32,749 bases of DNA from Jimgerdemannia flammicorona (GCA_003990765.1 RBNJ01000337.1:1-32749); one strand, 5' to 3'. Counted from the first letter of the stretch, positions 2,040 to 27,800 are shown. Notes: a model not told the origin generated them from the letters alone. Translations and numbers: made by a program.

Positions 2040-3915
2040 TTGACAAAGTCTAGTATTTTGGTAGTCAGACTGTTAAGATGGTATAGAGTGGTGACAGTTG
2101 CTCATATATATTATAGTTCAGAATTTTTGATTAAGGTATATACTGGTTATGTATTATATCTTTTAATAATAAAAATATGCTCTACTTCTTTTGAGTTCAT
2201 TTCTTTCTCTTTTGGTGAGTTTCTTAAAGATACTTGACTAGATAGGTTCAGAATTTTGAGATGTCTAAGAAGTAGATATATATAGAGAGAGCTCTGGATA
2301 ATTTATACTTAGGTTCTTCTTTCTTAGTCTATGCTTTTTCTTATTATGGAATTGTTTTTGAGACAGAATTAGTCTAGCTATTAGAATTTACTTAATTATA
2401 GTCTTGATTTAGCCAAATACTATTATTGGTAATTACAACCAACTGAGTATTCTTATTCTTAAATCTTTCTTGTACTATTTTGGTAGTATATTGAATAAAT
2501 AATCTGCTTTTATACTATTTTATGCTTTATCATTGACAATATATCTTAGGCCAATAGTGTTCAGAAGTAACTCAAGTTTTGTATAAAAGGTTTTAAATTC
2601 CTCCTTACAATATATATTAAATTTGAGATTATAGAGTTTAACTTGAGATTTAGTAATTAAAGTTTCACTACAATATTGAGCAATTATGAATTATTTGAGC
2701 CCAGGGGCTATAGAGTGATCTTCATATTTAGAGACATTATTTACTATATTTTGAGTAATAACTATAGATCAGATGTTATATATGAGGAATTTTTCAGAAA
2801 AGGTTTACTACTATTCTTCAGCAAGTTCTCAAAAGAATGTAACAACTCAGTAAATATAAGCCATAATAGTGGCAAAAAGTTTTTCAATAGTGTGGTCTTA
2901 GTTATTTATTAGGAGGTAGTCAGCAACTCACTCATTGATCTATTATATCTACTATACTAATAAAGCTTTGGACTTCTTTCTTATATAGTATTATTAAAAA
3001 TAGGTAGACTCAGGCTTTTAGTTAGTCAGATCTATTCAGCTAAGATAATAATAGTTGCTATCATTACAGCTATCTGGGCTATGAGATCTTGGATTTGTTA
3101 GTTTGCTATATTGTTTATAAGAGATAGTTGAACTACTAGTAGTGAAGTTACTGGTATAATTTGAGGTACTAGTGTAGAGTGTTATAGTATTTCTTGAGTT
3201 TGTATAAGTTGCTGAAGTAACTGTTATAGATCTGATATAAGGGTCTGATAGCTAACTATCTATTATTCAGTAAGTATATTTTGTCCTAAAGTAGGTATAT
3301 CTTCTTTAGTAGTATATTTAAGATCAAATTCAGTGAGATACTTCTTCTCTTCTTCACTTGTTCAGTATCAAAATAGATAGTATTGATTGTATACTAGAGT
3401 TCAGATAAACTTAAATCAAAAGCTTCTTCAAGATCAGATTCTGTTTCTAGTTTGATTTCAGATTTAGATAGAGTTCTAGCTAGGCCTGCTTCTGGCTCAG
3501 GGTCTAATTATTGATAAAGGATTTCTCTGACATCTTCTTTAAGAATATGATAGGTCTTATAATTCTGAAAATAGTAGTATAGGGCAGTCTTAGTTCTGGT
3601 ATAATAATAGTTAATAGAGTTGAGCTACTTGGTTACAGAGGCTTAGACTTTGTGAGGAACTAAGACTAGGAAGATAGCTACTGATTATTATAGATTGCTT
3701 GGGTTTATAGAGCTTATAAAACTCTTATTGAGAAGGATAAAGAAGACTTCTATAAGACCTTCTTCATCTTGACTTACAGGATGTAGAGTAAGAAGGTCAG
3801 TAAATAAGATTAAAGAACTTCTTTATATATATAAAGCTTGTTCTACTTGTTATAAGTATAGAGGTCTAATTGTCCTTATATATTAGGTTCAATTTATTCC
3901 AAATTATCAGATATG
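2040..3915 (-). pseudogene. gag: gypsy A gag remnant
   Basis: N-terminus aligns with gag of C. Capsid-like segment GLK*FIIAQYCSETLITKSQVKLYNLKF...KLELLLNTI at ~2555-2705. Decayed CCHC knuckle after FKKLTKRERNELKRS at ~2130-2230. Confidence 0.7.
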
Positions 3916-3951
3916 TAGTTTGAGATAAATTTCAGTTCAGTGGTTGGGCTT

Positions 3952-4215
3952 TAGGAATTTTCTATAAAGAATTATAGCTGAGTGAGAAAGTATTTTGAAG
4001 TAGAATTAGATTATAAACCACTGTTACTAAGTTATAAGAGAGTACTTGTTAGAGTACTGTTATATAGTTCTGGAAGGGTTTTCAGAAAGTTCTGAATATT
4101 CTAGAAGACTATTTTCTTAAGATTAAGATCAATTTTATATAGAGTATATCTTTTATACTTATTAATTTCAAGATTAGATTAATACATATCTTAACCAAAG
4201 TTCTTTCTTAGACTA
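3952..4215 (-). repeat. Partial (U5-side) 5' LTR of gypsy A
   Basis: Reverse complement matches ~21945-22208, the end of LTR C. Confidence 0.8.
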
Positions 4216-5516
4216 AAGACTTACTATAAATGAAATGCCTACTGCTTGCCAAACCTCAAGGTCAAGGAACCATCAAGACACCTCAGTTGAAGAAAGGATG
4301 TTCCAAGATATCAAAAGAGCCATAAGGACTCATATAAGAAGGACTCCTAGTGTTAACCTGAGTACTGCAGATCCTTATCACTTTATTCTCTACCACCATG
4401 AAATGGAAACAAGGATCACTATTGCTACCAAATGCCTTCAAATATGGTAGAAGTATGAAATAGAAAATCTCCTCTGCTGGAAGTATCCACAGGCCAGCCC
4501 TCAAGAGTTATAAGATATTACTCTCATAGATATGCATGAAACAAGAATAGCTAAGAAGATTCATCAGATCTTCAGGCATGCACCATGGTCAATCCCCAAC
4601 TTGAAGTATGTTAGAGTCTCAGATTTCAGAGATCTATCAGCCTACTGTATCAATGCACTAAAAGCCAGAGTGGCTACAGAAGCCCAGTCCACTATCACCC
4701 TCAATAGTGATGAAGTAGAAGACTTCTGGCATCCCATCCTCCAGGACAATCCAGACCAATTTCTGTAAGAATTGATCTCAGTATTCTAAGGCCCAAGCAT
4801 CTAGGTTAGACTTCTTCAAGATCTCACATTTGTCTCTTATTTTGTAGAAGAGAACCTCATAGATTGGAGAGCCCTCAATTTCCTCACATAATATATATAA
4901 AATGCACAACCTATGTAATGATGATGAGATGGACAAAATATTCACAGACCTCATCTCCTTCAAAGACATCCTGATCTCTGATGAGGATGAAGTCCCTATG
5001 GTCTTGAACATTCTGCTCTAAGTTCTTTGGTTACACTGAATTATGCCAGCACTCTTTTTCTATATAACAGCTATTCCTTTACTGGTATTCTGATGTAACT
5101 CAGAATTATTCCAGCACTATTTTTCTGTACCACTAAAATTATACCAGCATCCTGAACCTATGCAACCATCAGTGCCAATACTGGAACTTAGCAGTTTTCT
5201 ATATCCTAGTATTTTATTTTAGTTATTAGAATTTATATTTAGCTTTACATCTTAGCAACCATTGAATTATATTTTATATAAATACCCCTCTTATTTTCTC
5301 TGAAATAAAGTTAGTCTACTTAGTATAATATATACAATTTCTTACAAGCAATCTAAGAGATAACAAGATAGTTTAAAGATAAGAAGTTTGAGAACTATAA
5401 GACCTTAGGAAGGTACTCTAATAAGAACTTGCTTATAACAAACTTGAGTTAGTCTAAGAGATACACCTTGAAGAGAATCTGATATATTTGAAAAACTCAG
5501 TGACTACTATATAATA
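4212..5516 (+). repeat. 5' LTR of B (first ~220 bp missing)
   Basis: Colinear with the 3' LTR. Ends ...ACTATATAATA (decayed ...CATAACA). TATAAATA at 5277-5284 and AATAAA at 5304-5309. Confidence 0.9.
4235..4890 (+). pseudogene. LTR (U3)-embedded ORF of unknown function, 5' LTR copy
   Basis: ORF-track pieces 4235-4450 and 4532-4768 are in the same frame. Several stops are sense codons in the other LTR copy. The 3' end is uncertain. Confidence 0.65.
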
Positions 5517-5519
5517 ACT

Positions 5520-5533
5520 TGGTATCTATTAGC
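5520..5533 (+). promoter_or_regulatory. Primer-binding site of B (decayed)
   Basis: TGGTATCTATTAGC begins 3 nt after the LTR end. The cognate tRNA cannot be assigned. Confidence 0.6.
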
Positions 5534-8500
5534 TGATAATTCAAGATGAATCCCTTACTTTCAAGCTGAAAAATGAACAACTACTACAATAACTATCCTG
5601 ACTACAAGAGTCACCCCTGTAAGAATTTAAGACAAGATAGAAATGTATCCCTCCACATTCTATAGATATACTATTGAAGAGTCAATCCTGACCTTCATTG
5701 AAGACTTTGAACAATTCACTGCCATATAAGCCCTTGGTGTGGATGCATAATTGGCTCTTCTATCTATCAGCCTCAGAGAACCTGCCAGAGAAAAGTTCAA
5801 TATAGCCACTATTGCTGATAATAGTGCAGTCAAACTTGTCAATATGAAGGCCTTCCTCAGAACAATATATTATACTGAAGAGATCAAGCAAGCTCTCAAG
5901 GATCAACTCAATACTATCTACCAGAGACTCAGTGAAGATTCCAACTCATTCTATACCCAAATCTGCCATCAGATTATCTTGGCTGACTATAATAATACCC
6001 TCAAGAAACAAATAGCAGATTCAATCTTTCTCAAAGAAGTTCACCCTGAAATTGTCCTAGCAATCTGGTCTACCCCAGCTACACTGACCCTTGATCAGAA
6101 TATGGTCTTTGCACAGAGATATTGGACTACCAGACACTCTATCAAACACTCAATGGAGAAAATAACTGACATCAAGATAGAGCCATCAAAGCCAACTAGT
6201 ATCATACCCACCATAGTTATAAACAGACAACCATCCCCACCTACCCCCAAGACAGCCAAAGCTGACCCAGTGGCAGAACTCACTAAGCAGTTCACTGAGA
6301 TGACTATACACCTTGATGATGTTATTAGAGAAGTCTGAAGTGCCAACAGGAGACCAGTATAGAGATTTGCAGCTGCTATAGAAGAATGCAATATTATATG
6401 TTTCAGATATAGAGAAGAAGGCCACTATGTAAAGAGTTGCATGACTGAAACAAGATACAAAGCCCAACCAAGCAATGCTAGTAGAACCAGAGAACAAACC
6501 AATACAGTAATCATCAAGAAGATTGGTGATACTGATGATGAAGAATACTATAAAGAGCTCAAATTCTACTCTGCTACTAAAGGTACCAGAACCCAGTCTG
6601 AGCTCTATGACAAGAAGAGCAACAGTAAGCCAGTTGGAAGACCAAAGAAGACCCCAGCTATCACTATTCAAAGCAAGATCCAACCTGAGGAGATTGATCA
6701 AGACATGGAGTTAGATGAAGCTGTCTGCCAAATCATTGAAGGTACTACTCCAGTCTTAGGAGAAAGCAAAAGCAAAAAGGAACAGAAGCTGTATAAGACC
6801 AAGATCCACTAGTATGATATCTACAAGAATCTCAAAGAACAGAAGGTCAATGCTACTTTTGGACAGTTAGCTGAAGTCTCTGCCTTCAGACAGCAGTTGA
6901 GAGTAGGACTTACAACTACTGCTAAGAATCAAGAGTACAAGATTATAGAAGCTCACAATGCATAAGAAGATGATTAAGAAGACTCAGGTAAAGAATCTGA
7001 AGACTAGCACAAGATATTAGCCTATATCTCATATCAGATCAAAGATTGTATCTTTAATACTATCATTGATACTGGTGCTGGAGGATGTCTTATGAGTAAG
7101 AAGGCAATTGACTGCCTAGGCTGGGATATTGAAGAGTCCACCAAGATGGTCTATGTTACAGAAGATGGTATACAAGCTACCTCTCTTGGCAAAATCCAAA
7201 AAGTCCCCATCAAGATAGAAGAAGCTATCATCTCAGTAGATGTGATTGTTATAAGCACCACCAATTATACCATCCTCATTGGCAACCAATGGCTTCACAA
7301 GGCCAAGGCCATCATTGACCTCAATACCCAGAAGATACAGATCAACTATAGAGGAAAAAAGGTACAAGTCTCTATCAATGTCCATAAAGGAGTTCTACCA
7401 GATATGGAGGAAGAAGATGAGAAGGATACAGAAGTCTTCATATACTTGGTGAATAAGAATAAGAATAAGAACAAGACACTCAAGCTCACAGATGAGCAGT
7501 GGTACAACAAGATCATTGATGGCTATGCCCCTCAAGGAAGATGCCCCCATGGTACTAGAATGTACTACTCTGAACACCTGAATGACTACTGGTCCTATAT
7601 CAGTGAAGTCAGAAAAATCTACCAACAGAAGCATAAGCAAGAAGCTGCTGAAGCAAAAAGGAAAGCCAAAGAAGATGACCAGCCCCCAGAGCTTCAAGCT
7701 GATAGTGATGATGAGAAGGAATAAGAACCAGATATTACTCTCAAGGTTAAGAAGTTTCATCCTGAAGCCAAGATTCCAGAATACAAGACTGAAGGAGCCA
7801 TAGAAATAGACCTTGTCAGCATTTAAGATACTACCCTCAAATCACAGACCACTACTCTACTTGGCACTGGAATTGGAGTCAAGTTGCCAGAGAACTATAC
7901 TGGAATTATCAAGACTAGGAGCAGTCTGGCCAAAAGCAAAATCTCAGTTGAAGGAGGAGTAATTGACCCTAATTATACTGACAAGATCTTCCTCATAGTC
8001 AGGAATCACAACTCCACTACCCCATTCAAATTTAAGAAGTATGACAGGATTGGCCAGATGTTGATCCATGAAATCAAGAAGCCCAAGATCACTGAAGCCA
8101 TTGAACTCATCAAGACCAAGAGAGAAGAACAAGGTTTTGGATCTACTGGAAGAGGAGCCTATACTACTACCAAGATCACCAAACTTGAGCACAAGAAAGA
8201 CAGAGATCAGAACAAGCACACATATACTATTGGAGAAAACTTTCCCTTGAAAAAACAACTTCTTAAGATTCTGCATCAGAATAAAGGAGTACTTGCTATA
8301 GACTTCAGAGATATCTATAATCAAGAACTCAAATATTACTATGAAGTTGACACTGGCAATACCAAGCCCATCTACCAGAAAGCCAGACCTATACCACCTA
8401 TCTACAGAGAATAGCTACAAGCAGAACTCAAGGAAATAGAAGAAGTCAGAATCATCAAGCAAGCTATTAGTCTCTGGGCTTCATCTATTGTCCTTGCCTC

Positions 8501-10838
8501 AAAGAAAGAAAGCAAGCCTAGAGAGTTTGTACCAAGACTCTGTATTGACTACAGAAAGCTCAATGCAATCACTAAGAAGGATAGGTAGCCCTTGCCAAAT
8601 ATTCAAGAAATCCTTACTACTCTTGGAAGCAAAGCCAAATACTACACCACCTTGGATCTATTCTCAGGCTTCCATCAGATTGGTCTCACTCAAGATACCA
8701 GTGAGAAATCAGTCTTCATTACACCTGATGTCACCTATATCTACCTGTGAATGCTATTCAGAATATACAATGTCCCAGTAAGTTTTCAGTGAATGATGAA
8801 CAGAGTCTTTAGCAATGAGATTGGAAAATGGCTCTTTGTCTATATTAATGATGTGATCATCTTCAGCAACACTGCATGGGAATATATCAATTACATATAG
8901 CTAGCCCTCAAGAAGCTCAAGGAGTATGGCCTCTACATCAAGTCTAAGAAATGCAAGTTTGCAGTTCAGGAAATCACCTACCTAGGACACCTCATCAACC
9001 AGATAAGAATCCATATAGACTCCATGAAGATTGAGGCTGTTGTAGCCTACCCAAGACCCAGAACAACTACAGAAGTCCATGTCTTCCTTGAACTGGCCTC
9101 CTATTACAGAAGATTTATTAAAGGATACTCTAATATTGCAGTACCTATCTATGAGCTACTGAAGAAGGAAATGGACTAAGGAATGCCAAGAAACCTTTAA
9201 TAAACTCAAGACTAGGTTGACTCAAGCACCTATTCTCAGAAGACCAGATTGGAACCTAGAATTCATCCTGCAGACAGATGTGAGTGCTATAGGACTTGGA
9301 GCAGTCCTAGCTCAGAAGAAAGATGGACATGAATATGTTATCTCCTATATAAGCTGAGGTACCCATGGAGCAGAGCAGAACTATAAGTTATATAAGCTTG
9401 AATACTTAGCAATAGTTTGAGCAGTAGACAAGTTCTACTACTATCTAGCCAAGAAATACTTCACCATTTAAACAGACTATTCCACTCTTGCCTAGCTATT
9501 CCACACTCTGAACCCCAAAGGAATATATGCTAGATGGATCTACAGACTGCAAGAGTATAACTATACTATCAAGTACTGCTCAGAAAGAACCAATATCAAT
9601 GCTGATGCACTTTCAAGAATACCCTGAAATACCCCCATCAAGACTATTTAATATGAATAAAGAGTTATACTATGGATTAATCAGCTACCTTGGGTAGCAG
9701 AAGATATTCAACCACTTCAAACCCTGGACAATCACTATCATCAACCAGACTTGGAAACAGTTTGAGCTAGACAATACTATACTCAGAAAAGGAGGAAAGC
9801 TAGTAATACTCAAACATAAGAAGTATCAAGTAATGAAGGAAGTATATGAGCAAGGATACCTAGGAGAAACCAACATATATAATAAGGCAAGAAGAACCAT
9901 ATAGTGGCCCAAGATAGAGAAAGATCTGTGCCAATTTGTCAAAGGGTGTGATAAGTACCAAAAACAGAAATAAGATCAGCAAGACCAGATACCTAGGTTA
10001 TTAAGAATTGAGCCTATTCTCTTTCACCACATTGCAATAGATATCATTGGACCACTATCAGTAACAATATCAGGAAACCACTATATTATAGTTATTGTAG
10101 ACCTCTTTATCAAATAGATAGAAGCAGAAGTATTACAAGAAGCCAATATTCTCTCTATAGCTGACTTCCTATACTGAGAAATCATCTGCCACTATAAGAC
10201 ACCAAGGCAAATTACCACAGACTACAGCACAGAATTTATCAATAGATTCCATGAGATAATATATCAGAAATACAAGATTCAGTATATCAAGACCACCACA
10301 TACCACTCTCAAGGAAATGGATAGATAGAAAGAACTAACAAGATCCTCAAGAACATTCAGGCAAAAATCTCAGAGACATATGAGAATTGGAATAACTATC
10401 TCCCAACTGTCCTCTCTGTCCTATAAGATATATAGTTACAGAGCACACACTTTACTCCAAGAGAACTGCTCTTCAGAGAAGAAGATTCTGATAAAACCTC
10501 AGCTATAAATCTAGATTTAACTTAGAGATAGGTCAATGCAGAAATCTGAAGACTATACCAAATCAGAAAGAAGGCTGAAGATTACATCATCAAGTCACAG
10601 GAAAAATACAGAAAAGAATCACAAGACCTTAGAACCCATCCAAATTAGAGAAAAGGTCCTATTGTATCAAAATATGATAGAAGCCTCATGGTCATGAAAA
10701 CTGAAGCCCAAATAGAAATGACTCTTCTATATACAAGATATTAAGGGAACTATCTTCTGGCTTAGAAAAATCTCAGAGATCATACTGCCTATTATGGTAC
10801 ATAGGAATAGACTCAAGAAGTACCACAAACCTATATAA
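5532..10838 (+). pseudogene. gag-pol: gag-pro-dut-pol polyprotein of B
   Basis: ORF fragments at 5751, 6441, 7092 and 7884 share one frame. Knuckle CFR[Y<C]REEGHYVKSC at ~6400-6440. Protease IIDTGAGG at ~7062-7085. RT RLCIDYRKLN, LDLFSGFHQI and YIND (<YIDD) at 8841-8852. RNase H FILQTDVSAIGLGAVLAQ at ~9260. Integrase IDIIGPL, ITTDYSTEF and GNG*IERTN; ends near NRLKKY. No chromodomain seen. Confidence 0.9.
7731..8150 (+). pseudogene. dut: Trimeric dUTPase domain between protease and RT
   Basis: All five motifs are recognisable: GAIEIDL, RSSLA, GVIDPNYT, DRIGQ, REEQGFGSTG. Confidence 0.92.
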
Positions 10839-11192
10839 GAGAAGCAAAATGTGATGACTGCCAATGAGGTTCTAGTCTGCAAATTATAACAGCATGTCCA
10901 GTAATCAGCAGGCTATCTATCTGGACTATTCTTTAAGGGATATAGTACTAGCAACTACTCATCTGTGAGACTTTTGAAGCCAGAAGAGTTCAAACTATCA
11001 ACTAATTGATCAATATCAGAATCAGACCCTTGCTCTATATAAAGAAAGTAACCCTTCACCATTATTCCAAAATATATAGAGAAGACACCAGCCTATAAAC
11101 ACCACTTTTTGACCTCTTGTCAGAGGTTATGGGATCAGCAAATTTTTCAGGACTAGACTAATGAATAAGGATGCTCAAGAAGATCCTTATTT

Positions 11193-11202
11193 AGAAGAAA
11201 GA
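11193..11202 (+). promoter_or_regulatory. Polypurine tract of B
   Basis: AGAAGAAAGA immediately before TGTAACAG. Confidence 0.65.
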
Positions 11203-12753
11203 TGTAACAGTAATCCCAGAATGATGACATTAACACAGGAAACAGCCTTTCCTTGTAAGCTACCAGATCAGAGTACAAGAAGATCATATGGTATATAAGA
11301 TGAGTAATTATGACTAACTGTGAGTCATTGTGACCACAGTACAGGTATCTTGAGAAATATAAAAGAAGGATTAAGGAACCACAGTAGCAGCAACTCAACA
11401 AGATCCATCAATCCCAAAATAGCTCAAAGACTTACTACAAACTAAATGCCTACTACTTGCCAAACCTCAAGGTCAAGGAACCACCAAGGTACCTCAGTTG
11501 AAGAAAGGATATTCCAAGACATCAGAAGAGCCATGAGGACCTGCACAAGAAGAACTTCTAGTATCAACCTGGGTACTGCAGATCCTTATCACTTTATCCT
11601 CTACTACTGTGAAATAGAAACAAGGATCACCATTGCTACCAAATGCCTCCAAATATAGCAAGAGTATGAAATAGAAAACCTCCTCTGCTGGGAGTTCTCA
11701 CAGGCCAGTCCTCAAGAGTTATAAGATACTACTCCCATGGATATACACAAAACAAGGACAACTAAGAAGATTCATCAGATCTTTAGGTATGCACTATGCT
11801 CGATCTCCAACTTAGAGTATGTTAGAGTCTCAGATTTCAGAGATCTGTCAGCCCACCATATCAATACACTAGAAGCCAGAGTGGCTACAGAAGCTCACCC
11901 TCAATAGTGATGAAGTAGAAGACTTTTGGTATTCCATCCTCCAGGACAACTTAGACCAATTCCTACAAGGATTGATCTCAGTATTCCAAGGCCCAAGTAT
12001 CTAGGTTAGACCTCCCCAAGACCCCACATTTGTCCCCTATTTTGTAGAAGAGAACCTCATAGATTGGAGAGCCTCTGATTTCCTGCTGAACATAATAACA
12101 TCATCAGCAATGATGTCATCCCATGCAATATACATGAAACATGTGATCTATATGATGATAATGAGACAGACAAAATATTTGTAGACCTTATCTCCTTCAA
12201 AGACATTCTGACCTCTGATGAGAATGAAGCCTCTATGGTCTTGAACATTCTACTCTAAGTTTCTTGGTTATACTGAATTATACCAGCACTCTTTTCCTGT
12301 ATAATAGCTATTTCTTCACCAGTATTCTGATGTAACTCAGAATTATTCCAGTACTATTTTCCTATACTACCAAAATTATACTAGCATCCTGAACCTATGC
12401 AACCATCAATACCAATACTGGAACTTAGTAGTTTTCCATATTCTGGAATTTTATTTTAGTTATTAGAATTTATATTTAGCTTTATATCTTAGCAACCATT
12501 AAATTATATTTTGTATAAATACTCCTCTTATTTCCTCTGAAATAAAGTCAGTCTACTCAGTACAATATATACAATTTCTTGCAAGCAATCTAAGAGATAA
12601 CAAGACAGTTTAAAAATAAGAAGTTTGAGAACTATAAGATCTTAGAAAGGCACTCCAATAAGAACTTACTTATAATAAACTTGAGTTAGTCTAAGAGATA
12701 TACCTTGAAGAGAATCTGATATATTTGAAGGACTCAGTGACCACTACATAACA
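11203..12753 (+). repeat. 3' LTR of B (~1551 bp)
   Basis: TGTAAC...ATAACA termini. The start is inferred from PPT+TG because the 5' copy lacks this part. TATAAAA at 11358-11364 and TATAAATA at 12514-12521. Confidence 0.85.
11446..12258 (+). pseudogene. LTR (U3)-embedded ORF, 3' LTR copy
   Basis: MPTTCQTSRSRNHQG... is homologous to the 4235 copy. An 11-nt deletion lies near 11895. An acidic tail (DLISFKDILTSDENE) ends at ~12258, but its frame linkage is uncertain. Confidence 0.55.
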
Positions 12754-13560
12754 CTAGAAAGAAGTCTCTTTTTCTAATATAAGAACTTTAGATACTTATT
12801 AATTAGATTCTCAGATAATATAATGACTAAAGTAGTTAATAGAATAATAAGTTACTTAGATGATATCTTTAGATATTTTGATAATAATAGATAGTTCTTT
12901 AAAGATCTCTATAATACTTATAAGTTAATCTTATAATTATTTTAAAAAGATAAGAGATATCTAAATAAGATAAAATTAGTATCTTTAGTTTCTATAGTAA
13001 CTTAGTTATTTTTAATATGGTTTATAACTTTAGCTTTAAACTAATTATAGTCTTTTATAGATAAGATAATATCTTAAGAAATTACTCTTTTAAGATAAAT
13101 AATAGTTTAGGGTATATAGTTGAATATTTAATAAATATAAAGAATCTTCTTGATTTGACTTTCTATAATTAATTAATTTACAATGAGATCTTCTTAGTTG
13201 ATATTATTGACTTAATTATAGAGATAGTAGACAATTTTATAATTATATTAAAGGATAAGATAGATCTTGGTTACTTTGAGCTAATATATTATAGTATTAT
13301 AATAATTAATAAAGTAACCTAGATCTTCTATATTGATTGAAGTATTCAGCAGTATTTAGATAATAGTATAGTATAAAATATATAAGTCTTAGATCAGAAA
13401 ATAGAGATAAAGCAGCAGGCTGTTTGATAAGTATATAATAGAAGCTATAGTAGTGAATACTGATTCATAAAATAGTTAAAAAATAAAATTAATTTATAAG
13501 TATATTAAAGTAATAATAATTAAAGATAGATTTTTAAATAATAAAATTCATATTACTGCT
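12754..13560. mobile_element. Extremely AT-rich decayed TE relic (possibly gypsy RT, minus strand)
   Basis: TpA-saturated and CpG-free. Only a faint FLGH..EG..KV-like trace on the minus strand at ~13020-13090. Confidence 0.3.
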
Positions 13561-13796
13561 GGTCTGAGGTTTATCCAGAGATACAGAGGTCTGTGACTTG
13601 GGTCAACAATTTAGATACAGGCAATAAAACTCACATACTTGGTACTTAAATGTATGATGCAGGTACTCAAATATGTATACACATGTATGGTACCAGGATT
13701 TTGTGATAAAACGCCTCTTTTGCTATTCTCCCCTTTACCTTCAACAGCTTCGCTCTATAGCGCTTCCCTTTGTATGCTCTCTCTCTCTGTATCATT

Positions 13797-13839: not shown

Positions 13840-14157
13840 CAAAAACGTAGCGTTACCATACCTCTCGGTTTAACTCATAAAGAATCCGTGGGGGTTTTCG
13901 AGAACCATAAAGGGAAATACGATCCAGAGATTTTTACCTATACCGTCATACATCGAGTATTATGTGCGCACTCGCCAGATCCTCCATTTCATCTCATCCG
14001 CATACCGTACAACATATTTTCATCATACGAAGAAAACAAGGGGATTTCAAACCCCGATAGACAACCTTTAATCAACACTTCGAACTCTTTCATTATACAT
14101 AAGTATACTCTTAACAAAAAACAAAACAGAACAATCCTATATCACAACGCCCCTCTT

Positions 14158-15829
14158 CTATTCGATAATGGTCATGTCCCTCTTGCGGTCCTTGGCGTAC
14201 ACGTCCTTGTATTTATCGTAAATGTTCTGTAGCTCATCGATGTAGAGCTTCTGTGCGGCGAGGACCTCCTCCTCCGTTGGGTTGGCGGTTTTGACAAGGT
14301 CAATGGGGCGGCCAACTATGAGAACGAAAACCGTGGGATGCGTGAGACGATATTGGTACAGGTGCGGAGCTTAGAAGGACGAAATTATAATAAGGGAGGG
14401 ATGAAGATCCATACCAATGGTGTGGATGGCACGACGATGAGGGAGGAGACCGAGATCATCTATGGAGAACAGCGAAAAAATGATGAGCAACGCAATTTCC
14501 AATGGCAATAGATATCTCACCCTTACACCTACCGCACACATTACTTGGCGGAACCCACGCAGAAAATCGTAACACACAAAACCACCCTCCTTCATTCCAC
14601 ACTATCACTCTGCCGGCCACACACAACTCCCAAAACCAAGAAACTCGCGCTACTCACAGTTGAACATGCCCCTGCCATGGAACAACGGTAGCGTGAACCC
14701 CATAGCCTTCTGAATAGCCTTCTGCCACTTCCACACATTACTCCCCTTCTCATTCTGTAGCTGCTCATAGAGATCATTTTCGCCAAACGAGAACACGGGT
14801 ACAAGACTGGCTCCATTTCTCATAGCGAGCTTAATGAATCCGAGGCGCTTGCGCAGGGTGAGGTCGCTTGTACCCGGGCGAGCATTGAGCGATTCCGCGG
14901 CGCCGCCGACGACGATGACGATGGAGGAACCGGGCCCCTTGTTGAGAATGTTCTCGCAGGATGTGCGGGAGACGGAGGCGCAGCCCATGGCCATGAGATA
15001 GTCACGGTAGAGGGGGAGGTTGAAATTGGAGGTCAGCGTCAGAAGACGAGGCTTGATGCCAGGGAATTTGTCGGAGAAACCTGTGGCCTCTGTCGCGAAG
15101 TTGGTGAAGGCACCCATGGAGATGATGCCGTGGGGGTGGTAGCCGAAGATATAGTTCTTGGAGGGGTCGAGCTCGGATTCCTGGTGGGGAGGGTGGAAGA
15201 GAGAGGAAGGGAGGTGGTGCGGATAGTGAGCGTAGCTTTGGGGTGGATTATCGTCTGGTTGACTTTGGACTTTGAAGTTCCATCGTCCTGACTATATATC
15301 AGCTGTAGCATTCGCTCTCTACTCATGTCACTCGACGGATGTTTTCTCTTCACCTACTCATTCGCTTACCCTCTCCCACGGCCAGATCCCAACATACCTG
15401 CTCAAGCGTGCACGGGAAATAGTCGGCATAATATTTCCACACACCAAGTCTCTTTGCCCAGTCAAATGCTCTTCCGCCGTTCTCAGGCGCGATATCGAAG
15501 AGGACGAAGAGCCAGTAGGCGACGAGGAAGGGCCAAAAGAAGGGATTGGTGAAAGAGAGAAGGAAGAGGAAAAGGGTGATGGGAACGCTAAAGGCCCATA
15601 GGAAGACGGTCAGGGTCTGCAGACGACGCTCGCGGGGTACGCGGAGAGGCACGAAGCGGACCTTGGGAACGTTGGGGATGGAGGGCATGTGCGGCAGCTG
15701 TAGCATTTTAGGGCCAAGGCGACGCTTGGCGTCGGTGTGCGGCTTCTCAATGGCGGTGGTGGTGGCGGTGGAGACTGGGGAATCGACGGGGTCGACTAGG
15801 GTGTCTGTCTCGGACATGGTTTCGGACAT
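14158..15829 (-). CDS. DGA1: Diacylglycerol O-acyltransferase 2 (DGAT2/Dga1), 385 aa, exons 15829-15398, 15180-14658, 14459-14415, 14315-14158
   Basis: Motifs RRLQT, YFP, GYHPHG, GGAAESL and RKRLGFIKLA...GASLVPVFSFGEND. Three GT-AG introns (GTATGT/CAG, GTGAGT/TAG, GTATGG/TAG) join in phase to 1158 nt ending ...DRKRDMTIIE*. Alternative ATG at 15817. Confidence 0.96.
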
Positions 15830-16052
15830 GGTGGTGAGTGTTTAGGGAGGGGGGAGAGGAGTGTTGGGTGCGGGTGGGTGGGTGGGTGCCGAGCTGTCGT
15901 CAGTATTTCATTAAAGGAAAGGAATGAACCAAGGTGGGCGTGCTGTTGCTGAATAAAGAAAATTGGTTCAGCATTTTGTTTAGCAGGGAGCGGGAGACTT
16001 ATAAGAAATATCCAGAGACACGCGACAAAACGTACGACGTCACGGCCATCGG

Positions 16053-20633: not shown

Positions 20634-22209
20634 TGTAAGCGCACAACCTCCAAGCTACCAAAATCACATGGTATCCTCAGAACTAATTTGGAAACCACAT
20701 GCAAGACTACAAAACAAGAGATTATCTGGTTATATGAAATACACTAGCAAGTATGAGAACCTACTACCAAGATACAAGAATACTAGAAGAAGTACTATAA
20801 TCATAAGACTGACTCTGAACCACTATAACTAGTTTGGTGTACTGTACTATTATAAAAGGAAACCAAAAGTACCAAACTCAAATTGAGACAAGAAGAACCC
20901 TATCTCATCTACCAAAAGGTTCACGAACTACACTTATCAACTCAAGACCAAGATACACTACAACTATACAAGACCTCATTACTTAGCAGAAGCAAAACAC
21001 ATTTGAATAACTCTATTTGCTCTATCTGTATCATCTCCATTGGAGAGTGACAGATGCTTCATCTGAACTCAAGAAAGCCAACATTGTCAAAACCAATCTC
21101 AAGCCATCCATATGATAGATATTACTACTAGGAATTGCCTTGGATTACAGAAAATATCATTTCCAAGAGGTTCCAACCCCCAGCTGCGACATTGGGAGCC
21201 CTTGCCCTAGATGAGAATGGCCAGTCCTTACAAATGTACCAGTAGATCAAAAAAAAAGAGAACCAAGACCTGTTATCCTTGTACAACCACTGCCACCAAG
21301 GATAGCCTTAATCTTGCAAGAGATAGAAGTGATGACACCTTTGAAACTGATGACATCAGAAGTCAGAAAACTGCTCAGACTTTGCCAGTGATGATGCAAT
21401 TAATGGTGATGTTATCAAAGGCTACCCAGATAGTGTCTAAACCTATAAATAGCCCAGCAGTCATAGTATAGTTAGATTAGCCTTGTACGACATGACTGTG
21501 AACTGACTCAGCAGTCAGATGATCTCTTGATATGTCAGATCACACTTGTACTATGTAACTGCATTCTGACTCAGCAAGGTACTTAGTGCTACATCCATAT
21601 CTAGCATAGTCCAGATAGCCCCTCACTAGTATAAATACCCCCTCCCCCAGACCTCAGAATCTCAGACTTGAAAGACTTGAACAATCTGAACACAACTTCT
21701 AAGTACTTCCCTACAATATCTCTTTATATAACTACTCCTAGTATAGCAATATCATAAATAGTGAATAAACCTATTTAATAATCCACAAACCACTCTTAAG
21801 TAAATCTGCTCCCTGTTAGGTCCTACTCCTAACCCCATCATGAAATTTCCTAATTGGGTATTGTCTGCAGTGATACACCAATTCAACTAAGCTGGTCTTA
21901 GTTTCTTGAACTTCCTGAAATACAGAAAATTCTGAACATCCAGAACTAGTCCGAAAAAGGACTTTGGTTGAGATATCAACCCGATCTTGAAATCAATAAG
22001 AGTAGAGGATATACTCCATATGAAATTGATCTTGACCATAAGAAAACGATCTTCCAGAACATCTAGAACTTCCAGAAAACCCTTCCAGAACTATGTAATG
22101 GTTACCCTAAAAAGCAACTCTCTTACAACTTGGTAGCAGTAGTTTATAATCCAATTCTGCTTCAAGACGCTTCCTCACTCTGCTACAAACCCTTCTGAGA
22201 ATTCCTACA
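20634..22209 (+). repeat. 5' LTR of gypsy C (~1576 bp)
   Basis: Begins TGTAAG where the copia integrase stops and ends CCTACA before the PBS. TATAAAAG at 20851 and TATAAATACCCC at 21630. The end matches the LTR of A. No second full copy to confirm the start. Confidence 0.75.
20880..21440 (+). pseudogene. Putative LTR-embedded ORF in LTR C
   Basis: The frame through 20960 reads TTIQDLIT*QKQNTFE*LYLLYLYHLHWRVTDASSELKKANIVKTNLK... for ~140 codons with few stops, all transition-explicable. Start codon not identified. Confidence 0.45.
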
Positions 22210-22212
22210 AGT

Positions 22213-22224
22213 TGGTATCGAGCC
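22213..22224 (+). promoter_or_regulatory. Primer-binding site of C (tRNA-Met-like)
   Basis: TGGTATCGAGCC 3 nt after the LTR end; resembles the TGGTATCAGAGC iMet PBS. Confidence 0.7.
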
Positions 22225-22252
22225 CAACCTCTGAACTGGAATTTATCCTGAA

Positions 22253-22678
22253 CTATCTGACAATCTGAAGAGAATTGAACCTGACGTATAAGGACAATTT
22301 GATCTCCACACCTACAACAAGTGGGACAAACTTCATTCAAAGAAAGAAGTACTCTAGTTAAACCAGCAAATAGGTGAAACCCTATTCACTGAACTCCTTG
22401 CACTACACTCAGCAAGTCAAGATGAAAAAGATCTTATTGAAGCCTTCTTTACTCTTCTCAACAAGAGTTTTGTCAGCTCCACAAATCCGAGTAACCTAGG
22501 ACAACCAGCAGCAGTCTTTCTAGCCTTAGTCTCTCATGAAGCCCAAGCCTCTATAGCCAAGTGGCTCAACTCTACCAACTTTCACTGCACCAGGACCAAG
22601 ACCACATTATACTACCGATTTCAGAACAGCAAGGCCCACTATATCCTTAAAGAAGAAGCAAGAGCACTTTCTCCTCCG
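22253..22678 (+). pseudogene. gag: gypsy C gag N-terminus, interrupted by the LINE
   Basis: SDNLKRIEPDV*GQFDLHTYNKWDKL...ILKEEARALSPP in one frame with 2 stops; homologous to gag of A. Confidence 0.7.
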
Positions 22679-22748: not shown

Positions 22749-24779
22749 ATGGTGACCAACGAGCATCTGGAGGTGCATACTGGGCAGGGTGGCCCTGGAG
22801 CATTTGAATAGCAGCAAGTGGGGAGAGGCCCCGGCTTGGGGGGAAGTATGAGGGGCCTGCTGGCGGGGGGCCATGGTGGAAGAGGGAGCGGAGCTGGAGG
22901 TCAAGGGTCTGGCAGAGTGAGCTTTGCGGAGAAGGTGAAGGGGGGTCAGCAGGGAGCAGGACTGGAGAGCTGGCTGAGAGGGAGGAAGGTACCGGTGATA
23001 GCTTCCAGGCAGCAACCTTTTGGGGGTGCCTCTCTGGAGGGCCATAGGAGTGGAGCTGGGGGGGTAGCGGCTGGGGCGGGGACTGCTGATGGGAGTGTGA
23101 CGGGTGATCTGGAAAAAAATCTAGATGGGACTGCTGATGGTGAGCCGAGCTGTGGGAAGGGCACGAGGCCCAGGGACCTGGCGGATGGTGTAATGGGACT
23201 GGCGGTGGCCCTATTACTCAAGAAGTTGATTTCGGCATTCACAGTCATGCTGTGCTTCTGGGGCTTAGCAGTGATGACAAAAATGGTGTTGGGGCTTATC
23301 GCTAAGCAGGTGGCGGGAGCGGCTTTGGTAAAATTTCTGAAGGGACTGGAGGGAGTGGAGGTGGGATTTGAGGAGGTAGAACTGCTGGAGGAGGCGCTGA
23401 AGGTTGGGTTAGTGGTTGGGGAGGTGTACGTTCCAATGGCGAGGTATTTGAAATGAGATCCGAGGGTGGTCCAACTGCTGGTGAAAGGAGTACCCATGGT
23501 GACGGTGATGGAGATGAGGAAGAGAGTGGAGGATGTCATGGCGGAGTATGGAGAGGTGGTGGATATCGGATTCAGAGTCTGAGAAGGGACCACACTCAGG
23601 ACTGGGAATGTGGATGTGAGGATTTGGCTGGCTGGGAAAGAGGCTACTGGGAAGACAAGGGACTGGCCCTCGGTGTTGGTCTGGGGGGCTTTCCTGTGCA
23701 AGGTGACATGGGTGAAAGGAAGTGAAGAAGAGGAGGAAGATTTATTGGAAGCACTGGAGGAGCTGAATGGGGCTGTGGAATGGCAAGCTAAGGCCTGGAA
23801 GACTTTCGAGAAGTCGACGCTCCTGGAGGTGGTGGATGGAAAGAGGATTCGAGTGGACAAGGTGCAGTGGGAAAGGGCTCAGGGGCAGAAGAGGCAGAAG
23901 GATTTGCTGGCTAAGCTGGGGGGTGGACCACAGAAGGATGCGAGCATGAAGACAGGTACAGAAGGGGCCGGAGCAAGTGTCTGGGCTGGTGCGAGGAGTG
24001 GGAACGAAGGGGCAGGGTCAGGGCAGGCTAAGGAGGTGCAGATTAGAGACCTATATGCTGACGGCACCTTGGAGATTTGGGATGACAGCTGGGAGAACTC
24101 CCCCACCCCTTCCCCTCTAATCAGATGGGGCCCGGCTTCCAGGAACAAGCCTGGGGAGGATGTGACGATGCTGGGAACCCAGCAGGTGAAATTCAGCATT
24201 CTGGAGGTGTTGGGTGGGGACCAAGTAGTGGCGGCAGGGGAGGAGGAACTGGTGGATGTCCCAGAGGTGTGGGATGAGGACGCGAGTGTGGGAGTGGACA
24301 CCATGATGCTAGATGGAGGGAGGCTGGCGACCCCTGGTGGAAAGGAGGTGGGGAACCTACTTTGGATGTGCCGGATGATGAATAACCTGGCAGCAGAAGA
24401 GCTGGGGGAGGTGGACTTGCGTGGGATGGGTGATGAGCACTGGATGAGAATTTTGCAGGGGGAAGGAGTGGCAATGGTGCTGAAGGCGGAAATTCTTGCG
24501 GTATATCTGGAGGAGGAAGGGTATGAGGTGGATAAGGAGAGGGAGGCAGAGTTGGCAGTGGTCACTGGGGAGAAGGCTGAGTACTGTTGGAACAGGCATC
24601 ATGGGTTATAGCTTTGGCAGGAGGCTTGCATCAAGTACCGAAAGGAGTTTGAGGAGAAGGCTGATGAGGAGATGAATGAGCTGTTGGCTGGACTAGAGGC
24701 TCAGAGGGCTGAAGAGGAGGAGGTGATGGCTGAACATCATCTGGATATAGCACAGGAGGAGAGGGGCATGGAGCAGTAG
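22749..24779 (+). pseudogene. LINE ORF1 (~676 aa, RRM-like)
   Basis: Single frame from ATG 22749 with internal stops at 22809, 23454, 23580 and 24609. VSFAEKV motif. RRM-like LLVKGVP...VEDVMAEYGEVVDI...TGNVDVRI. Confidence 0.8.
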
Positions 24780-24810
24780 GGATTAATTGAGAACCAACCG
24801 TATTTTTATT

Positions 24811-27800
24811 ATGAACAGTACAACCAACATTTTTTCTTTGAACATGAATGGGCTAAGGGGTGCAGTTAGACACAGGAACATTTTTCTTTGGTTGAAGGAA
24901 TTGGAGGCCGATCTCTTCCTCTTGCAGGATGTCAGGTGCGAGGATGACGCTGATAGGATGGAATGGACTAAGGAATGGGGTGGTATGGTGATTTGGAATA
25001 GCAAGGTTGGGATTCTGGTTCGGAAAGGCAGAGGGGAGATAAAGGATGTGAGGAGCTGGGGGGAGAGACTGGTCTGGGGTGAGTGGATTTGAGCAGATTG
25101 GGAGCCGGTCACAGTTGGCTCCTATTACTGCCCTGCAGTGCGGGGGGAGCATGTGGATTGGGTGAAAGGGCTCCTGGAGAGTGGGATCCTTACTGAAGCT
25201 GGGTTGGATATGCTTGGAGGAGATTTCAATATGGTTTGAGATGTACGGCTGGATAGAACTGATGGAGGATGGGGTGTGGAGAGTAGGAGTGGAGGGTTAG
25301 CAACGTGGGAGGAGGTTGAAAGGCTAGGAGCACTGGTGGATGCTGGTAGGGAGCACTGGGGGGACAGGAGAGTATATATGCATTGGGCTGGAGGTCTGGG
25401 GACAAGGATTGACTGGATTCTGACAGCCGACTGTTGGGGCCATGATGTCTGGAAGGTGATAGAGGTAGAATGGTGTCCATGGTCAGATCACTGGGACCTC
25501 TTGGGACAGGGGTGTTTTGGGGGAAGTAGAGATGGGCCTGGACATTGGCGCCTGAATTTCTCCTTGTTGGATGATGAGGTCTGGTGGGAGGAGTGGGCAA
25601 AAGACATTCAGTTGAAGGTGACGAATTGGCGGCAGGAAGGGGCCGCAATTGGGGTTTGGTGGATGAGGATGAAAGAGATAGCCAGGATGTATTGGAGCGA
25701 GGTTGGCAGAGTGGCTGGGAGGCAGCAAAGGCAGAAAGTGCATTGGGCTTCTACTAGATTGGCTAGGCTCCTGGAGGAGTGGGCGAGACTGGCTGCAGTG
25801 GAGGGAGAAGAGGATTGGAGAATAACGAGGGTGAAGATGGAGGTTGGGGAACTGCAACAGGTGCTGCAGGAAGAGAAAGAGTCAAGGGTGCAAGGCCTGG
25901 TGGCATGGCTTCATTGGCAGGGGGTGGAGGAAGGGGAAAGGCCTTCCAAGTTTCTCACAAGGACACTTTGAGTGAGAAGAGTACAGCAGCAGTGGGAAGG
26001 GGTACTTGACTTGGATGATGTACTAGTGCATGGTGTACAGGACATCCTTGGAATGCTGAAGGCGCGATGGAGTAGATTGTGGAGTGAGGAGGAGGGTGGG
26101 GCGGATGCTACAGCCATTGACCAAATATTAGAAGATTGGCACCCACCACGAGCTGAGGGACTAGGTGATCTGGTGATGCCTGTAAAGGAGGATGAGATCT
26201 ACCAGGTTCTTGCCGTGACAGCCTTGGGTATGGCGCCTGGGGAGGATGGCCTCCCCTGGGATTTCTGGAAGCGAATGGTTGGAGTCCCAGGCATATTGGG
26301 GGAGCTGATGGTACTGTGTGACTCTATATTGCAGTCAGGGAGATGGGTGGGGGAGCAAGACCTTGGGCTGGTGATGCTGCTTTATAAGAACAAGGGAAGG
26401 CAAGAGGATTGGAAGAACTGGCAGCCGATAATGTTGCTAGATATGGACAGGAAGTTGGTGACTAAGGTGGTGGTTGCAAGGCTACAGAAGGTGGCCCAGC
26501 AAATTGTGGGTGTTGAACAGAGGGGCTTCATAGGGGGTCGGCTCATTAGAGATGGCATGGCCTGGGTACATGGAGTTATTGAAGGTGTTTTAGCCTGTGG
26601 ACTGGATGGGCATCTTGTCTTCTTGGATCAGGAGAAGGCTTATGACCGGGTGCGGCAAGTCTGGCTGGCGAAAGTATTAGATAGAATTGGAGTTCCGGCC
26701 CCATTTCGGTCGGCGATGGTCAGCCTACTAGAAAGGAGTAGGGCTGCGCTCGTGTGCAATGGGCATCGAGGGGTGGCTTTCCCTCTGGGTAGGGGAGTGC
26801 CCCAGGGGGACCCACTGTCCCCCATTTTGTATGCTCTTTCCTTGGAACCTCTTATGGACAGGATTCGGCGGAGGATCGTGGGGCTCTCTATCTATGGAGT
26901 TGGCTGGAAAGTTGGAGCCTTTGTGGACGACATAGTGGTTGGTTTGGGAGTGACTGAGGATGTTGAGGAGCTCCAGAAGACAGTGGAGTGGTATGAGGCG
27001 AACTCTGGGACAAAGCTGAATTGGCACAAGTGTGAAATAATGGTGCTGGGCAATGGCTTGGTGGATGGAGAAGTTATTGGAACAATTGTCCCCACCGGAG
27101 AGGCAGTGTGGTACTTGGGCATCTATTTGTTGGTCTATGGGTCTGTTTTGCCCAGGCTGTAGTGGGAGCAGAGGATTGGAATTTGGGAGGAGGACTTGCG
27201 GGGTTGGGGGGGTAGACACTTCTCTCTGGCAGGAAGGATCTCGATTTTGAATGTTTACTGGCTGCCGAAGATGTGGTATTTGGCCTATCATCTGGACTTC
27301 CCAGCCTGGGTGGTAAAGAGATTGGTGAAGGTGGCCAAAGGATGGATTTGGGCTGGCAGACGGAGTCAGATTGGTTGGGAGACTCTGTCCCTACTGGTGG
27401 CAAGAGGTGGTCTTGGGCTGGTGGACTTCTCCAAGAGACTACACTGCTTGTGGGCTTGGTGGCTGAGGAGAGTGGTGGAGTTGCATGGAGGGGGCTGGGT
27501 CCCCTTGCTGCAGAAGATATGGGAGAGGAGGACATCACCTAGAGGCTTAACTGGTGATCTTCTTTCATTAGTTGGGCTTCAGAACACTGTGTAACTGAGA
27601 TATAAAGGCTTCTGGTGGGGTATAGCCAAGGGGGTACACTGCATTGGTATTCGCTGACGAGAGGATGAGGGGGAGAGGGCTTGGGGCCCAGCAATGTGGA
27701 GATGGGATAGCATTCTTCTGGGAGGCATGCCTTTACTGGAGTTCAACATTTGTGATGGCATCAAATGCCAAAGGAGACTGGGCCAGGATCTGTGGCCTAG

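Follow-up and report, generated by a model that had tools for sequence, protein, structure and literature searches.

Probable remains of an orphan-family accessory gene in the long terminal repeats of a Ty3/gypsy element from Jimgerdemannia flammicorona

The window – the whole stretch of 32,749 nucleotides from Jimgerdemannia flammicorona (GCA_003990765.1, RBNJ01000337.1:1-32749) that was analyzed – contains a decayed LTR retrotransposon, here called element B, next to an unrelated repeat (repeat A) and a DGAT2 gene. Comparison of the window with itself returned two direct repeats, 4209-5514 and 11420-12751, which are 86% and 90% identical in two blocks. The region between them matches the Pfam families RVP_2 (1.6e-8, at 7008-7724), dUTPase (1.8e-19) and then, in sequence within 8400-11200, RVT_1 (1.7e-21), RT_RNaseH_2 (3.3e-31), Integrase_H2C2 (7.4e-9) and rve (0.0049). 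A gag-like frame with a zinc knuckle of the form CX2CX4HX4C can be read from the translation of 6363-6812, and Pfam found no chromodomain in B. Long direct terminal repeats, combined with an integrase that follows the reverse transcriptase, mark B as a Ty3/gypsy element (Metaviridae), and its predicted order of protease, dUTPase, reverse transcriptase, RNase H and integrase is the Ty3/gypsy order. Stops break every coding domain of the interior. Details of all features are shown in Table 1.

Table 1. Element B, the gene copies and adjoining features, in positions of the window.
Feature	Position	Strand	Basis
Unrelated repeat A, adjoining the broken 5′ LTR of B	3533..4215	-	self-comparison
5′ LTR of element B, as preserved (~1.31 kb)	4209..5516	+	repeat homology
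Decayed LTR gene, 5′ LTR	4235..5021	+	tblastn with P0003
65-nt direct repeat between gene stop and main TATA	5023..5129	+	repeat search
Main TATAAA (5277) and AATAAA (5304) of B's LTR	5277..5309	+	position-inferred function
Internal region of B: gag, protease, dUTPase, RT, RNase H, integrase	5517..11192	+	Pfam
Candidate polypurine tract AGAAGAAAGA, then TGT	11193..11203	+	purine-tract scan
3′ LTR of element B, preferred model (~1.55 kb)	11204..12753	+	PPT then TGT
TATAAAA, candidate promoter, 82 nt 5′ of the ATG	11358..11364	+	sequence motif
Decayed LTR gene, 3′ LTR	11446..12258	+	tblastn with P0003
Third decayed copy, very AT-rich, distant subfamily (P0013/P0016-like)	12802-13474	-	tblastn

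Several smaller signals accompany the repeats. Directly 3′ of the 5′ LTR lies TTGGTATC, with its PBS-like TGG. The main TATAAA and AATAAA have counterparts in the 3′ LTR at 12514 and 12541, and the 65-nt direct repeat has its counterpart at 12275-12399. The latter is possibly enhancer-like, and its copy number is probably variable, as is suggested by contigs that skip 113-115 or 165 nt at this place; Tandem Repeats Finder returned no match on 4900-5520. Rfam and tRNA scans of the window were without a match.

Of central interest is a reading frame that the two LTRs have in common. It begins at the same ATG (4235 in the 5′ LTR, 11446 in the 3′ LTR), runs for ~271 codons and finishes at a TAA (5019-5021 and 12256-12258). 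The gene stop lies 256 nt before the main TATAAA, which sets the ORF within U3 and hence in both LTRs. An earlier reading of this DNA, made from the sequence only, had already reported the same frame in both LTRs, and this part of it stands; however, its length of ~200 codons and its end at 4890 give way to the 271 codons found here, and an LTR of 1.55 kb is arguable for the 3′ copy only. When the copies are aligned by tblastn with P0003, an open relative from the protein databases, 4235-4873 of the 5′ copy corresponds to residues 1-213 (73% identity) and, past a frameshift, 4878-5018 corresponds to residues 224-271. The 3′ copy is matched in three parts, 11446-11898, 11894-12082 and 12085-12255, in frames +1, +2 and +1, respectively. 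In the ungapped part the frame of the gene contains five stops; the remaining two frames have 12 each. Immediately 5′ of the ATG of the 3′ copy there is an in-frame TAA.

Neither copy in the window is intact. Stops interrupt the 5′ copy at codons 72, 93, 178, 185 and 190 (n = 5) and the 3′ copy at codons 71 and 93 and at 12002-12004 (n = 3). Some are complementary between the copies, just as the sequence-only reading had described: where the 5′ copy has TGG TAG (stop at 4448-4450) the 3′ copy has TAG CAA (stop at 11656-11658), and the 5′ copy's TAA at 4766 is matched by CAA in the other. Two stops are nonetheless common to both, namely the TAA at 4511-4513 and 11722-11724 (codon 93) and the TAG at 4802-4804 and 12002-12004, and because of them the consensus of the two window copies is not open. 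Both copies are also frameshifted, owing to a deletion of 11 nt after 11894 in the 3′ copy and to 37 nt that are missing at 4884/4885 in the 5′ copy. The nearly open two-copy consensus that had been expected is thus lost on both counts.

The manner in which the stops arose can be read from the open relatives. In the alignment every stop of the window stands opposite a glutamine, tryptophan or arginine codon of the relatives, and at all eight of the stops tested (8/8) the residue of the relative comes back once a T is returned to C or an A to G; the stops are thus accounted for by C>T and G>A decay of such codons. The same direction of change extends beyond the stops: measured against P0004, decay explains 30 of the 38 mismatches of the 5′ copy and the opposite direction 2/38, while against P0003 it explains 35/58, 27/48 and 5/12 mismatches (controls: 6, 4 and 3). 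Between the two LTRs there are 155 transitions and five transversions over 1295 aligned sites. CpG is absent from the 5′ LTR and the internal region of B and occurs once in the 3′ LTR; the observed/expected ratio of CpG in the neighboring DGAT2 gene is 0.89. The mutated C most often precedes G, then A or C, and scarcely ever T. To judge from these alignments, the window copies were inactivated by hypermutation (C>T / G>A) together with two indels. By codon position the differences between the two copies number 20, 12 and 26, a spread that is expected of neutral decay after insertion and is uninformative on selection in live elements.

The open relatives themselves were obtained by protein searches. 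Using the read-through translation (with an X for each stop) as query, four relatives at 72-80% identity were found among 34 candidates. P0003, with 271 residues, spans the whole query and ends in ...ILNFLL, as against MVLNILL-stop in the window. A profile search of 1.84 billion representatives returned five proteins at E <= 0.001, and a profile search of a set of 5.8 billion returned 13 clusters at this threshold among 8000 scored candidates. Three of the frames are open for 271 (P0003), 325 (P0013) and 342 residues (P0011), their mutual identity being 28-40%, and the distant members P0010, P0011, P0012 and P0013 have open frames of 200-342 residues and are 28-47% identical to P0003. All four members that run from residue 1 (P0003, P0010, P0011 and P0013) start with MP; the distant members keep the blocks EYEI, AKKIHQ.FRH.P, LQDN.DQ.LQ and F.GP.I; and, in the alignment, the length differences between members are in-frame. 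The chance of 271 open codons at the base composition of the window is ~6e-8 to 9e-8. Given the open relatives and this low chance we take the LTR frame to be a real gene of active elements, which bears out the view that it codes for protein and did not arise by chance.

As compared here, the open relatives are a small orphan family that comprises at least two diverged subfamilies. All its members are annotated as unnamed or 'hypothetical', and the open ones are a selected sample, since gene callers list open frames only. The contigs that bear them are short (567-4848 nt). Searches for the DNA of open copies yielded 243 pattern matches in metagenome contigs and 125 in viral contigs, none of which was confirmed (0 and 0), and an exact 24-nt stretch of the LTR had no match in metagenome contigs. 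No longer fused form was present among the 8000 scored candidates, which is weak evidence.

Where exactly the LTR begins bears on how deep the gene lies within it. The 5′ LTR offers little help: repeat A, which is 74% identical to the reverse complement of 21947-22656, abuts it, and the homology between the copies of A stops at 4214/4215 in both. The end of A at 4215 probably marks a nested insertion of A into the 5′ LTR of B. Because the start of the 5′ LTR is missing or nested, no target-site duplication of B can be read. The reverse arrangement, with B nested in repeat A (a YTAGA duplication and an LTR start at ~4213), was considered and rejected: the sequence to the right of B (12752-13700) is no continuation of the second copy of A, their alignment scoring 43 versus 44.7 +/- 5.5 for shuffled sequences.

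For the 3′ LTR two starting points come into question. A start at 11204 is favored by the purine tract followed by TGT, by mirrored ends and by a breakpoint in an RNA contig. Tracts of ten purines followed by TGT occur at five sites in the window, counting both strands, against 2.06 expected. In purine/pyrimidine terms, TGTAACAGTAAT at this start is the mirror image of the terminal ...ACTACA at 12748 (transitions allowed; read by eye), and in one abundant RNA contig the part to the left of 11213 becomes unlike, CpG-bearing sequence. A start at ~11420 is favored by the onset of homology, the 3′ LTR resembling the 5′ copy no earlier than 11420, and by breaks in contigs of both DNA and RNA: seven contigs of soil DNA end at ~11407-11412 and three RNA contigs start at 11415-11426. 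Counting against it, there is no purine tract and no TG near 11420. We prefer 11204 over ~11420 by roughly two to one. Under this model the first 216 nt of the 5′ LTR are out of view, and the ATG lies 243 nt inside the LTR; with a start at ~11420 the depth would be ~20-26 nt. As judged from the repeat, then, the gene is inside the LTR under every model that fits, with a 5′ border at 11204 or ~11420.

The choice of border also decides the standing of the TATAAAA upstream of the ATG in the 3′ LTR. TATAAA is present at both 11358 and 12514, as had been noted. The motif at 11358 has no counterpart in the 5′ copy, and to fall within the LTR it requires the start at 11204; moreover, TATAAA is frequent in the AT-rich DNA of the window, with three occurrences in the 5′ LTR alone.

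The third copy belongs to a distant branch of the family. It was recovered by tblastn in two matches, 13328-12966 and 12924-12802, with 33% identity and E values of 1.8e-17 (P0016) and 5.9e-16 (P0013). It has many stops, its start at ~13474 was read by eye, and it is truncated by the 3′ end of B. On its 5′ side there is DNA of normal GC content and the poly(A) end of DGAT2 (~14026), and no pol. From the lack of pol upstream we infer that in the second subfamily, too, the gene is located at the 5′ margin of a repeat unit. The location of the third copy fits an LTR or solo-LTR position, and it seems that B inserted into an older LTR that held it. Aligned as DNA, B's LTR and the third copy score 165, not above the 196 +/- 16 of shuffled sequences, and a search for the C-terminal part of the third copy in 3300-4260 and beside 21947 gave nothing below E 0.3.

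RNA data come from two studies of the same organism (X1 and X2), which consist of contigs only, with one depth figure per contig, and whose labels as RNA are guesses. Their DGAT2 contigs differ from the window at 0-2 positions per 400-436 nt and have the introns removed (14315/14415, 14459/14658 and 15179/15397, with CT..AC ends on the plus strand); because they are spliced and nearly identical, X1 and X2 can be regarded as RNA of this organism. In both sets the depth of LTR-like contigs is 10-100 times that of gag-pol. Summed depths in X2 are 70, 313 and 2380 in the bins of the 5′ LTR, 0-15 in the bins of 5505-9714, 84 in the bin 9715-10135, and 874, 1155, 300, 705 and 537 from 10978 on. In X1 they are 25.6, 9.6 and 29.8 in the 5′ LTR, 0-13 in the bins of 5505-9714, 2.9 in the bin 9715-10135, and 41.5 from 10978, followed by 273 (11399-11819), 5.5, 0 and 9.3; the bins of 10136-10977 have a depth of ~90-110, which comes from one contig of 4.6 kb on the opposite strand. 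As these are contig data, the internal bins of zero depth by themselves prove nothing. LTR sequence, including the gene, is found in RNA far above gag-pol, and the contigs do not reveal the point at which this RNA starts. The LTR contigs of X1 and X2 match the window at only 84-88% and thus stem from other copies. Read-through accounts for part of the LTR RNA, given that the X2 contig enters at 11213 from unlike sequence, and the starts at 11415-11426 are not usable as transcription starts because the DNA contigs break there too. No splice joint to the LTR gene was seen among the contigs of X1 and X2. Two further data sets, of soil DNA (X3) and root RNA (X4, four records), contain small shares of the sequence words of the window.

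The protein offers a composition rather than a name. Pfam found no family for P0001, P0002, P0003, P0010, P0011 or P0013, even at E <= 5, and a PDB profile search with the family gave no sequence match. Two AlphaFold2 models have a mean pLDDT of 44.2 and 50.6, with a helical core at 60-74, and Foldseek found no match in the PDB at E <= 0.001, the models being too weak for inference either way. No family, fold or motif thus points to a function. In the ESM Atlas the best score was 0.83, to unnamed clusters and within the range of chance. In all four members examined the N-terminal 60 residues are basic and rich in arginine (+8 in P0003) and the last third is acidic, with a charge of -14 to -20, which is a statement about composition only. 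The acidic tail contains hydrophobic/aromatic motifs (among them DLISFEDI, DDFLFEH and DDWPLFYPL) and ends P0003, P0011, P0012 and P0013; P0010 stops short of that region. This layout, a basic N-terminus with an acidic tail, typifies nuclear activators as well as some RNA-export adaptors. Composition of this kind makes it conceivable, though we hold the idea only tentatively, that the LTR protein is an activator-like nuclear regulator of the element's own expression.

Together the above analyses are best explained, with a probability that we put at about 0.7, by a dead Ty3/gypsy element with a dUTPase whose LTRs hold a real accessory gene of ~271 codons in sense orientation. The gene, a member of an orphan family, is dead in the window and is open and apparently transcribed elsewhere. 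It would occupy the first two thirds of U3, to be followed by the 65-nt repeat, the main TATA and the poly(A) signal. The 3′ end of the genomic RNA would contain U3, which would be copied into both LTRs, and because of this copying the gene would ride along in every new insertion and would remain in solo LTRs once the rest of the element is lost. Translation could proceed from a short LTR-borne mRNA that starts in U3, 5′ of the ATG, and ends at the poly(A) site of the LTR; alternatively, a subgenomic RNA might serve.

A bolder form of this explanation is possible, and we regard it as doubtful. Each LTR would be a self-contained gene with a U3 promoter, an ORF of 271 codons and a poly(A) site; solo LTRs would be expressed; the product would be a nuclear activator or anti-silencing factor acting in trans; and the excess of LTR RNA would be its mRNA. 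On such a reading the factor would hold the main promoter accessible in the face of methylation and hypermutation of repeats by the genome, full elements would hold two copies of the gene, and the 10-100-fold excess of LTR RNA would be the gene's message.

Gene capture by LTR elements is known, and the ORF might be a passenger – a host or foreign gene caught in the LTR that, while perhaps expressed to this day, has no part in the life cycle of the element. The protein has no similarity to retroelement proteins and its family is tiny, both of which would suit a capture. However, no cellular relative was found among the 1.84 billion representatives or among longer proteins, and two subfamilies that are ~30% identical both lie at repeat edges within this one window, which favors long co-evolution over recent capture. 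We therefore consider a passenger improbable.

Alternatively, the gene could be internal, located between pol and a short LTR of ~490 bp (12259-12751), with 4235-5021 as the end of another element lying upstream, in tandem or through recombination, rather than a piece of a 5′ LTR. The 490-bp tail does have its own TATAAA and AATAAA and is of normal size for a fungal LTR; furthermore, the break in the 5′ copy at 4209-4215, only 20-26 nt short of the ATG, calls for one rearrangement under every model. Yet there is neither a purine tract nor a TG at 12259-12275; the sole purine tract with TGT between pol and the end of the LTR, outside the ORF, is that at 11193-11205; and the third copy has host-like DNA upstream of it, not pol. 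In soil DNA the summed depth is ~990-1060 for the gene part of the two copies, nearer to that of the LTR tail (~1240) than to that of the interior (290-505); with one depth value per contig, this hints only weakly. An internal gene is on these grounds decidedly improbable. It might also be that there is no gene at all, the frame having arisen by chance in non-coding U3 or being a relic there, and its database relatives being artefacts of gene callers. Members that are unnamed or 'hypothetical', come from short contigs, lack Pfam domains and are modeled at low AlphaFold2 confidence would agree with this. It is scarcely credible, however, against frames of 271-342 codons kept open at 28-47% identity with conserved blocks, an MP start and length differences that preserve the frame, any one of which would be open by chance with a probability < 1e-7.

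Returning to an accessory gene within the LTR as the preferred reading, the consequences reach beyond element B. If it is true, solo LTRs gain a coding role, and the family provides a tractable orphan protein for studying the response of a retrotransposon to silencing and hypermutation of repeats by its host. There is also a lesson for annotation: LTR genes of this kind are masked as repeats, and what they encode enters databases without a name, under the label of hypothetical protein.

The usual description of an LTR retrotransposon is of gag and pol, with any extra ORFs located between the LTRs; accessory genes embedded in the LTR characterize a few complex retroviruses. Closest in architecture to the gene of B is sag of MMTV, likewise a sense ORF in U3 and hence in both LTRs. 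It has ~300 codons and fills most of a long U3 (the LTR is ~1.3 kb), and it is an accessory gene, dispensable for reverse transcription. Unlike MMTV, B belongs to a fungal-type host and is a Ty3/gypsy element without env; there is no homology between the proteins (Pfam 0, PDB 0), and B's protein is basic then acidic and, as far as can be told from its residues, not a membrane protein. Other 3′ accessory or regulatory genes that reach into the LTR are nef of HIV, bel/tas of foamy viruses and the pX genes of HTLV, and several of their products combine basic and acidic parts and act as activators in the nucleus or handle RNA. These genes start upstream of the polypurine tract and merely overlap U3, whereas the ATG of B's gene lies 243 (or ~20-26) nt inside the LTR; here too there is no homology. 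In plants the LTRs of Cassandra TRIM elements carry a 5S RNA gene, which is hence duplicated and retained in solo LTRs. Cassandra resembles B in that a transcribable gene resides in the LTR; it differs in that this is a Pol III RNA gene of a non-autonomous plant element, whereas B has a protein gene in a Ty3/gypsy element of autonomous type. A CERV protein is reportedly known from Cer1.

Additional ORFs (aORFs) of LTR retrotransposons provide a second point of comparison. The passages of PMC7264820 that concern them place them in the internal region and make no mention of ORFs within LTRs. Examples given in parts of the published accounts are brtn of Boty from Botrytis, which is antisense and internal (PMC8365987), ORF0 of Retrosat2, which is upstream of gag (PMC3485330), and the antisense ORFs of Grande, RIRE2 and Retand, ORF0 of RIRE3 and RIRE8, and ORF1 of Ogre (PMC7264820, PMC8365987, PMC3485330). 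Like the gene of B, aORFs are lineage-specific and kept within one retrotransposon family. Unlike it, those in these passages are internal (5′ of gag, or from pol to the 3′ LTR) and many are antisense, while B's gene is in sense orientation and inside the repeat. The dUTPase of B has fungal parallels: according to the relevant part of PMC2864245 it lies between protease and reverse transcriptase in PosPlaTy3-5 of Postia, and the dUTPase-bearing chromovirus-like elements of fungi, which also include elements of Phanerochaete and Tmt1 of Tuber, resemble B in the order of their pol domains. For some element, the legend of Figure 3 in PMC2864245 notes an 'additional ORF with unknown function'; the passages concerned place none in an LTR. 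The literature searched, whose scope took in few subscription journals, gave no LTR-embedded ORF for Metaviridae, the matches being to MMTV or to the same terms in unrelated senses; with no comparable case found in it, the earlier statement that a protein gene in U3 is not standard in Metaviridae agrees with the record. If the preferred reading is true, the packing of a gene into U3, as practiced by retroviruses, arose outside the Retroviridae too.

Element B, the decayed Ty3/gypsy retrotransposon at 4209–12751, shows strong C>T / G>A hypermutation aimed at repeats. Alignment of its two LTRs reveals 155 transitions against 5 transversions, and not a single CpG occurs in either the 5′ LTR or the internal part (the 3′ LTR has one). 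For comparison, the observed/expected CpG ratio is 0.89 in the neighbouring host gene (14650–15841) and 0.30 in the LINE-like element of the window. The contexts of mutation in element B rank as CpG > CpA ~ CpC >> CpT. Features of the element and its surroundings are collected in the table below.

Features of element B and of the surrounding DNA
Feature	Position	Strand	Remarks
Second PPT-like site, GAAGAAAGGATGT	4289–4301 (counterpart 11500–11512)		inside the LTR gene, codons 19–23
65-nt direct repeat, 2–3 units	5023–5129 and 12275–12399		between LTR gene stop and main TATA
dUTPase domain	7827–8414		1.8e-19; element B, between protease and RT
DGAT2-type diacylglycerol acyltransferase, host gene	14026–15913	minus	
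GC-rich stretch with long open frames	about 22800–28100	plus	52–56% GC

The gene embedded in the LTRs carries changes that recur. The database fragment P0015, a protein relative of this gene, ends in FRYAL, and the same reading is present in the 3′ copy in the window (11788–11802); the corresponding site is FRHAP in the 5′ copy, as in the open relatives. The step from FRHAP to FRYAL requires two CpA>TpA changes, and because the same two are found in independent copies (P0015 and the 3′ copy), the sequences suggest mutational hot spots.

Two further landmarks lie within the LTRs. The second methionine of the LTR gene (MFQDI), at which the database relatives P0004 and P0007 start, coincides with the second PPT-like site; the presence of such a site within the gene may be due to chance. 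At the 65-nt repeat, contigs of other copies contain joints that omit 113–115 or 165 nt, and the number of units therefore seems to differ among those copies.

A junction at 11407–11426 (and 4209–4215) is also recurrent: seven contigs from the soil DNA run end within it and three contigs from two RNA runs begin there. Similarity to the 5′ LTR sets in at this point, and repeat A stops there; the junction may be where the LTR starts, a boundary between modules or a hot spot of insertion.

The stretch as a whole is a pile of nested repeats. A second gypsy-like element is located to the left of element B in opposite orientation: its integrase region (767–1506, matching 9236–9975 in reverse) is 70% like that of element B, and its 0.7-kb repeat (3533–4215) has a further copy, also in reverse, at 21947–22656. 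The GC-rich stretch shows a strong excess of G over C (skew 0.36–0.52) and includes a frame (25972–27162) that resembles, in its motifs, a non-LTR reverse transcriptase. In the DGAT2-type host gene, which contains the YIFGYHPHG motif, RNA contigs bear out three introns (14316–14414, 14460–14657 and 15180–15396), and the poly(A) end lies near 14026.

In the placement of its dUTPase, element B is like PosPlaTy3-5 of Postia placenta, for which a dUTPase has been described in the same interval, between protease and RT (PMC2864245).
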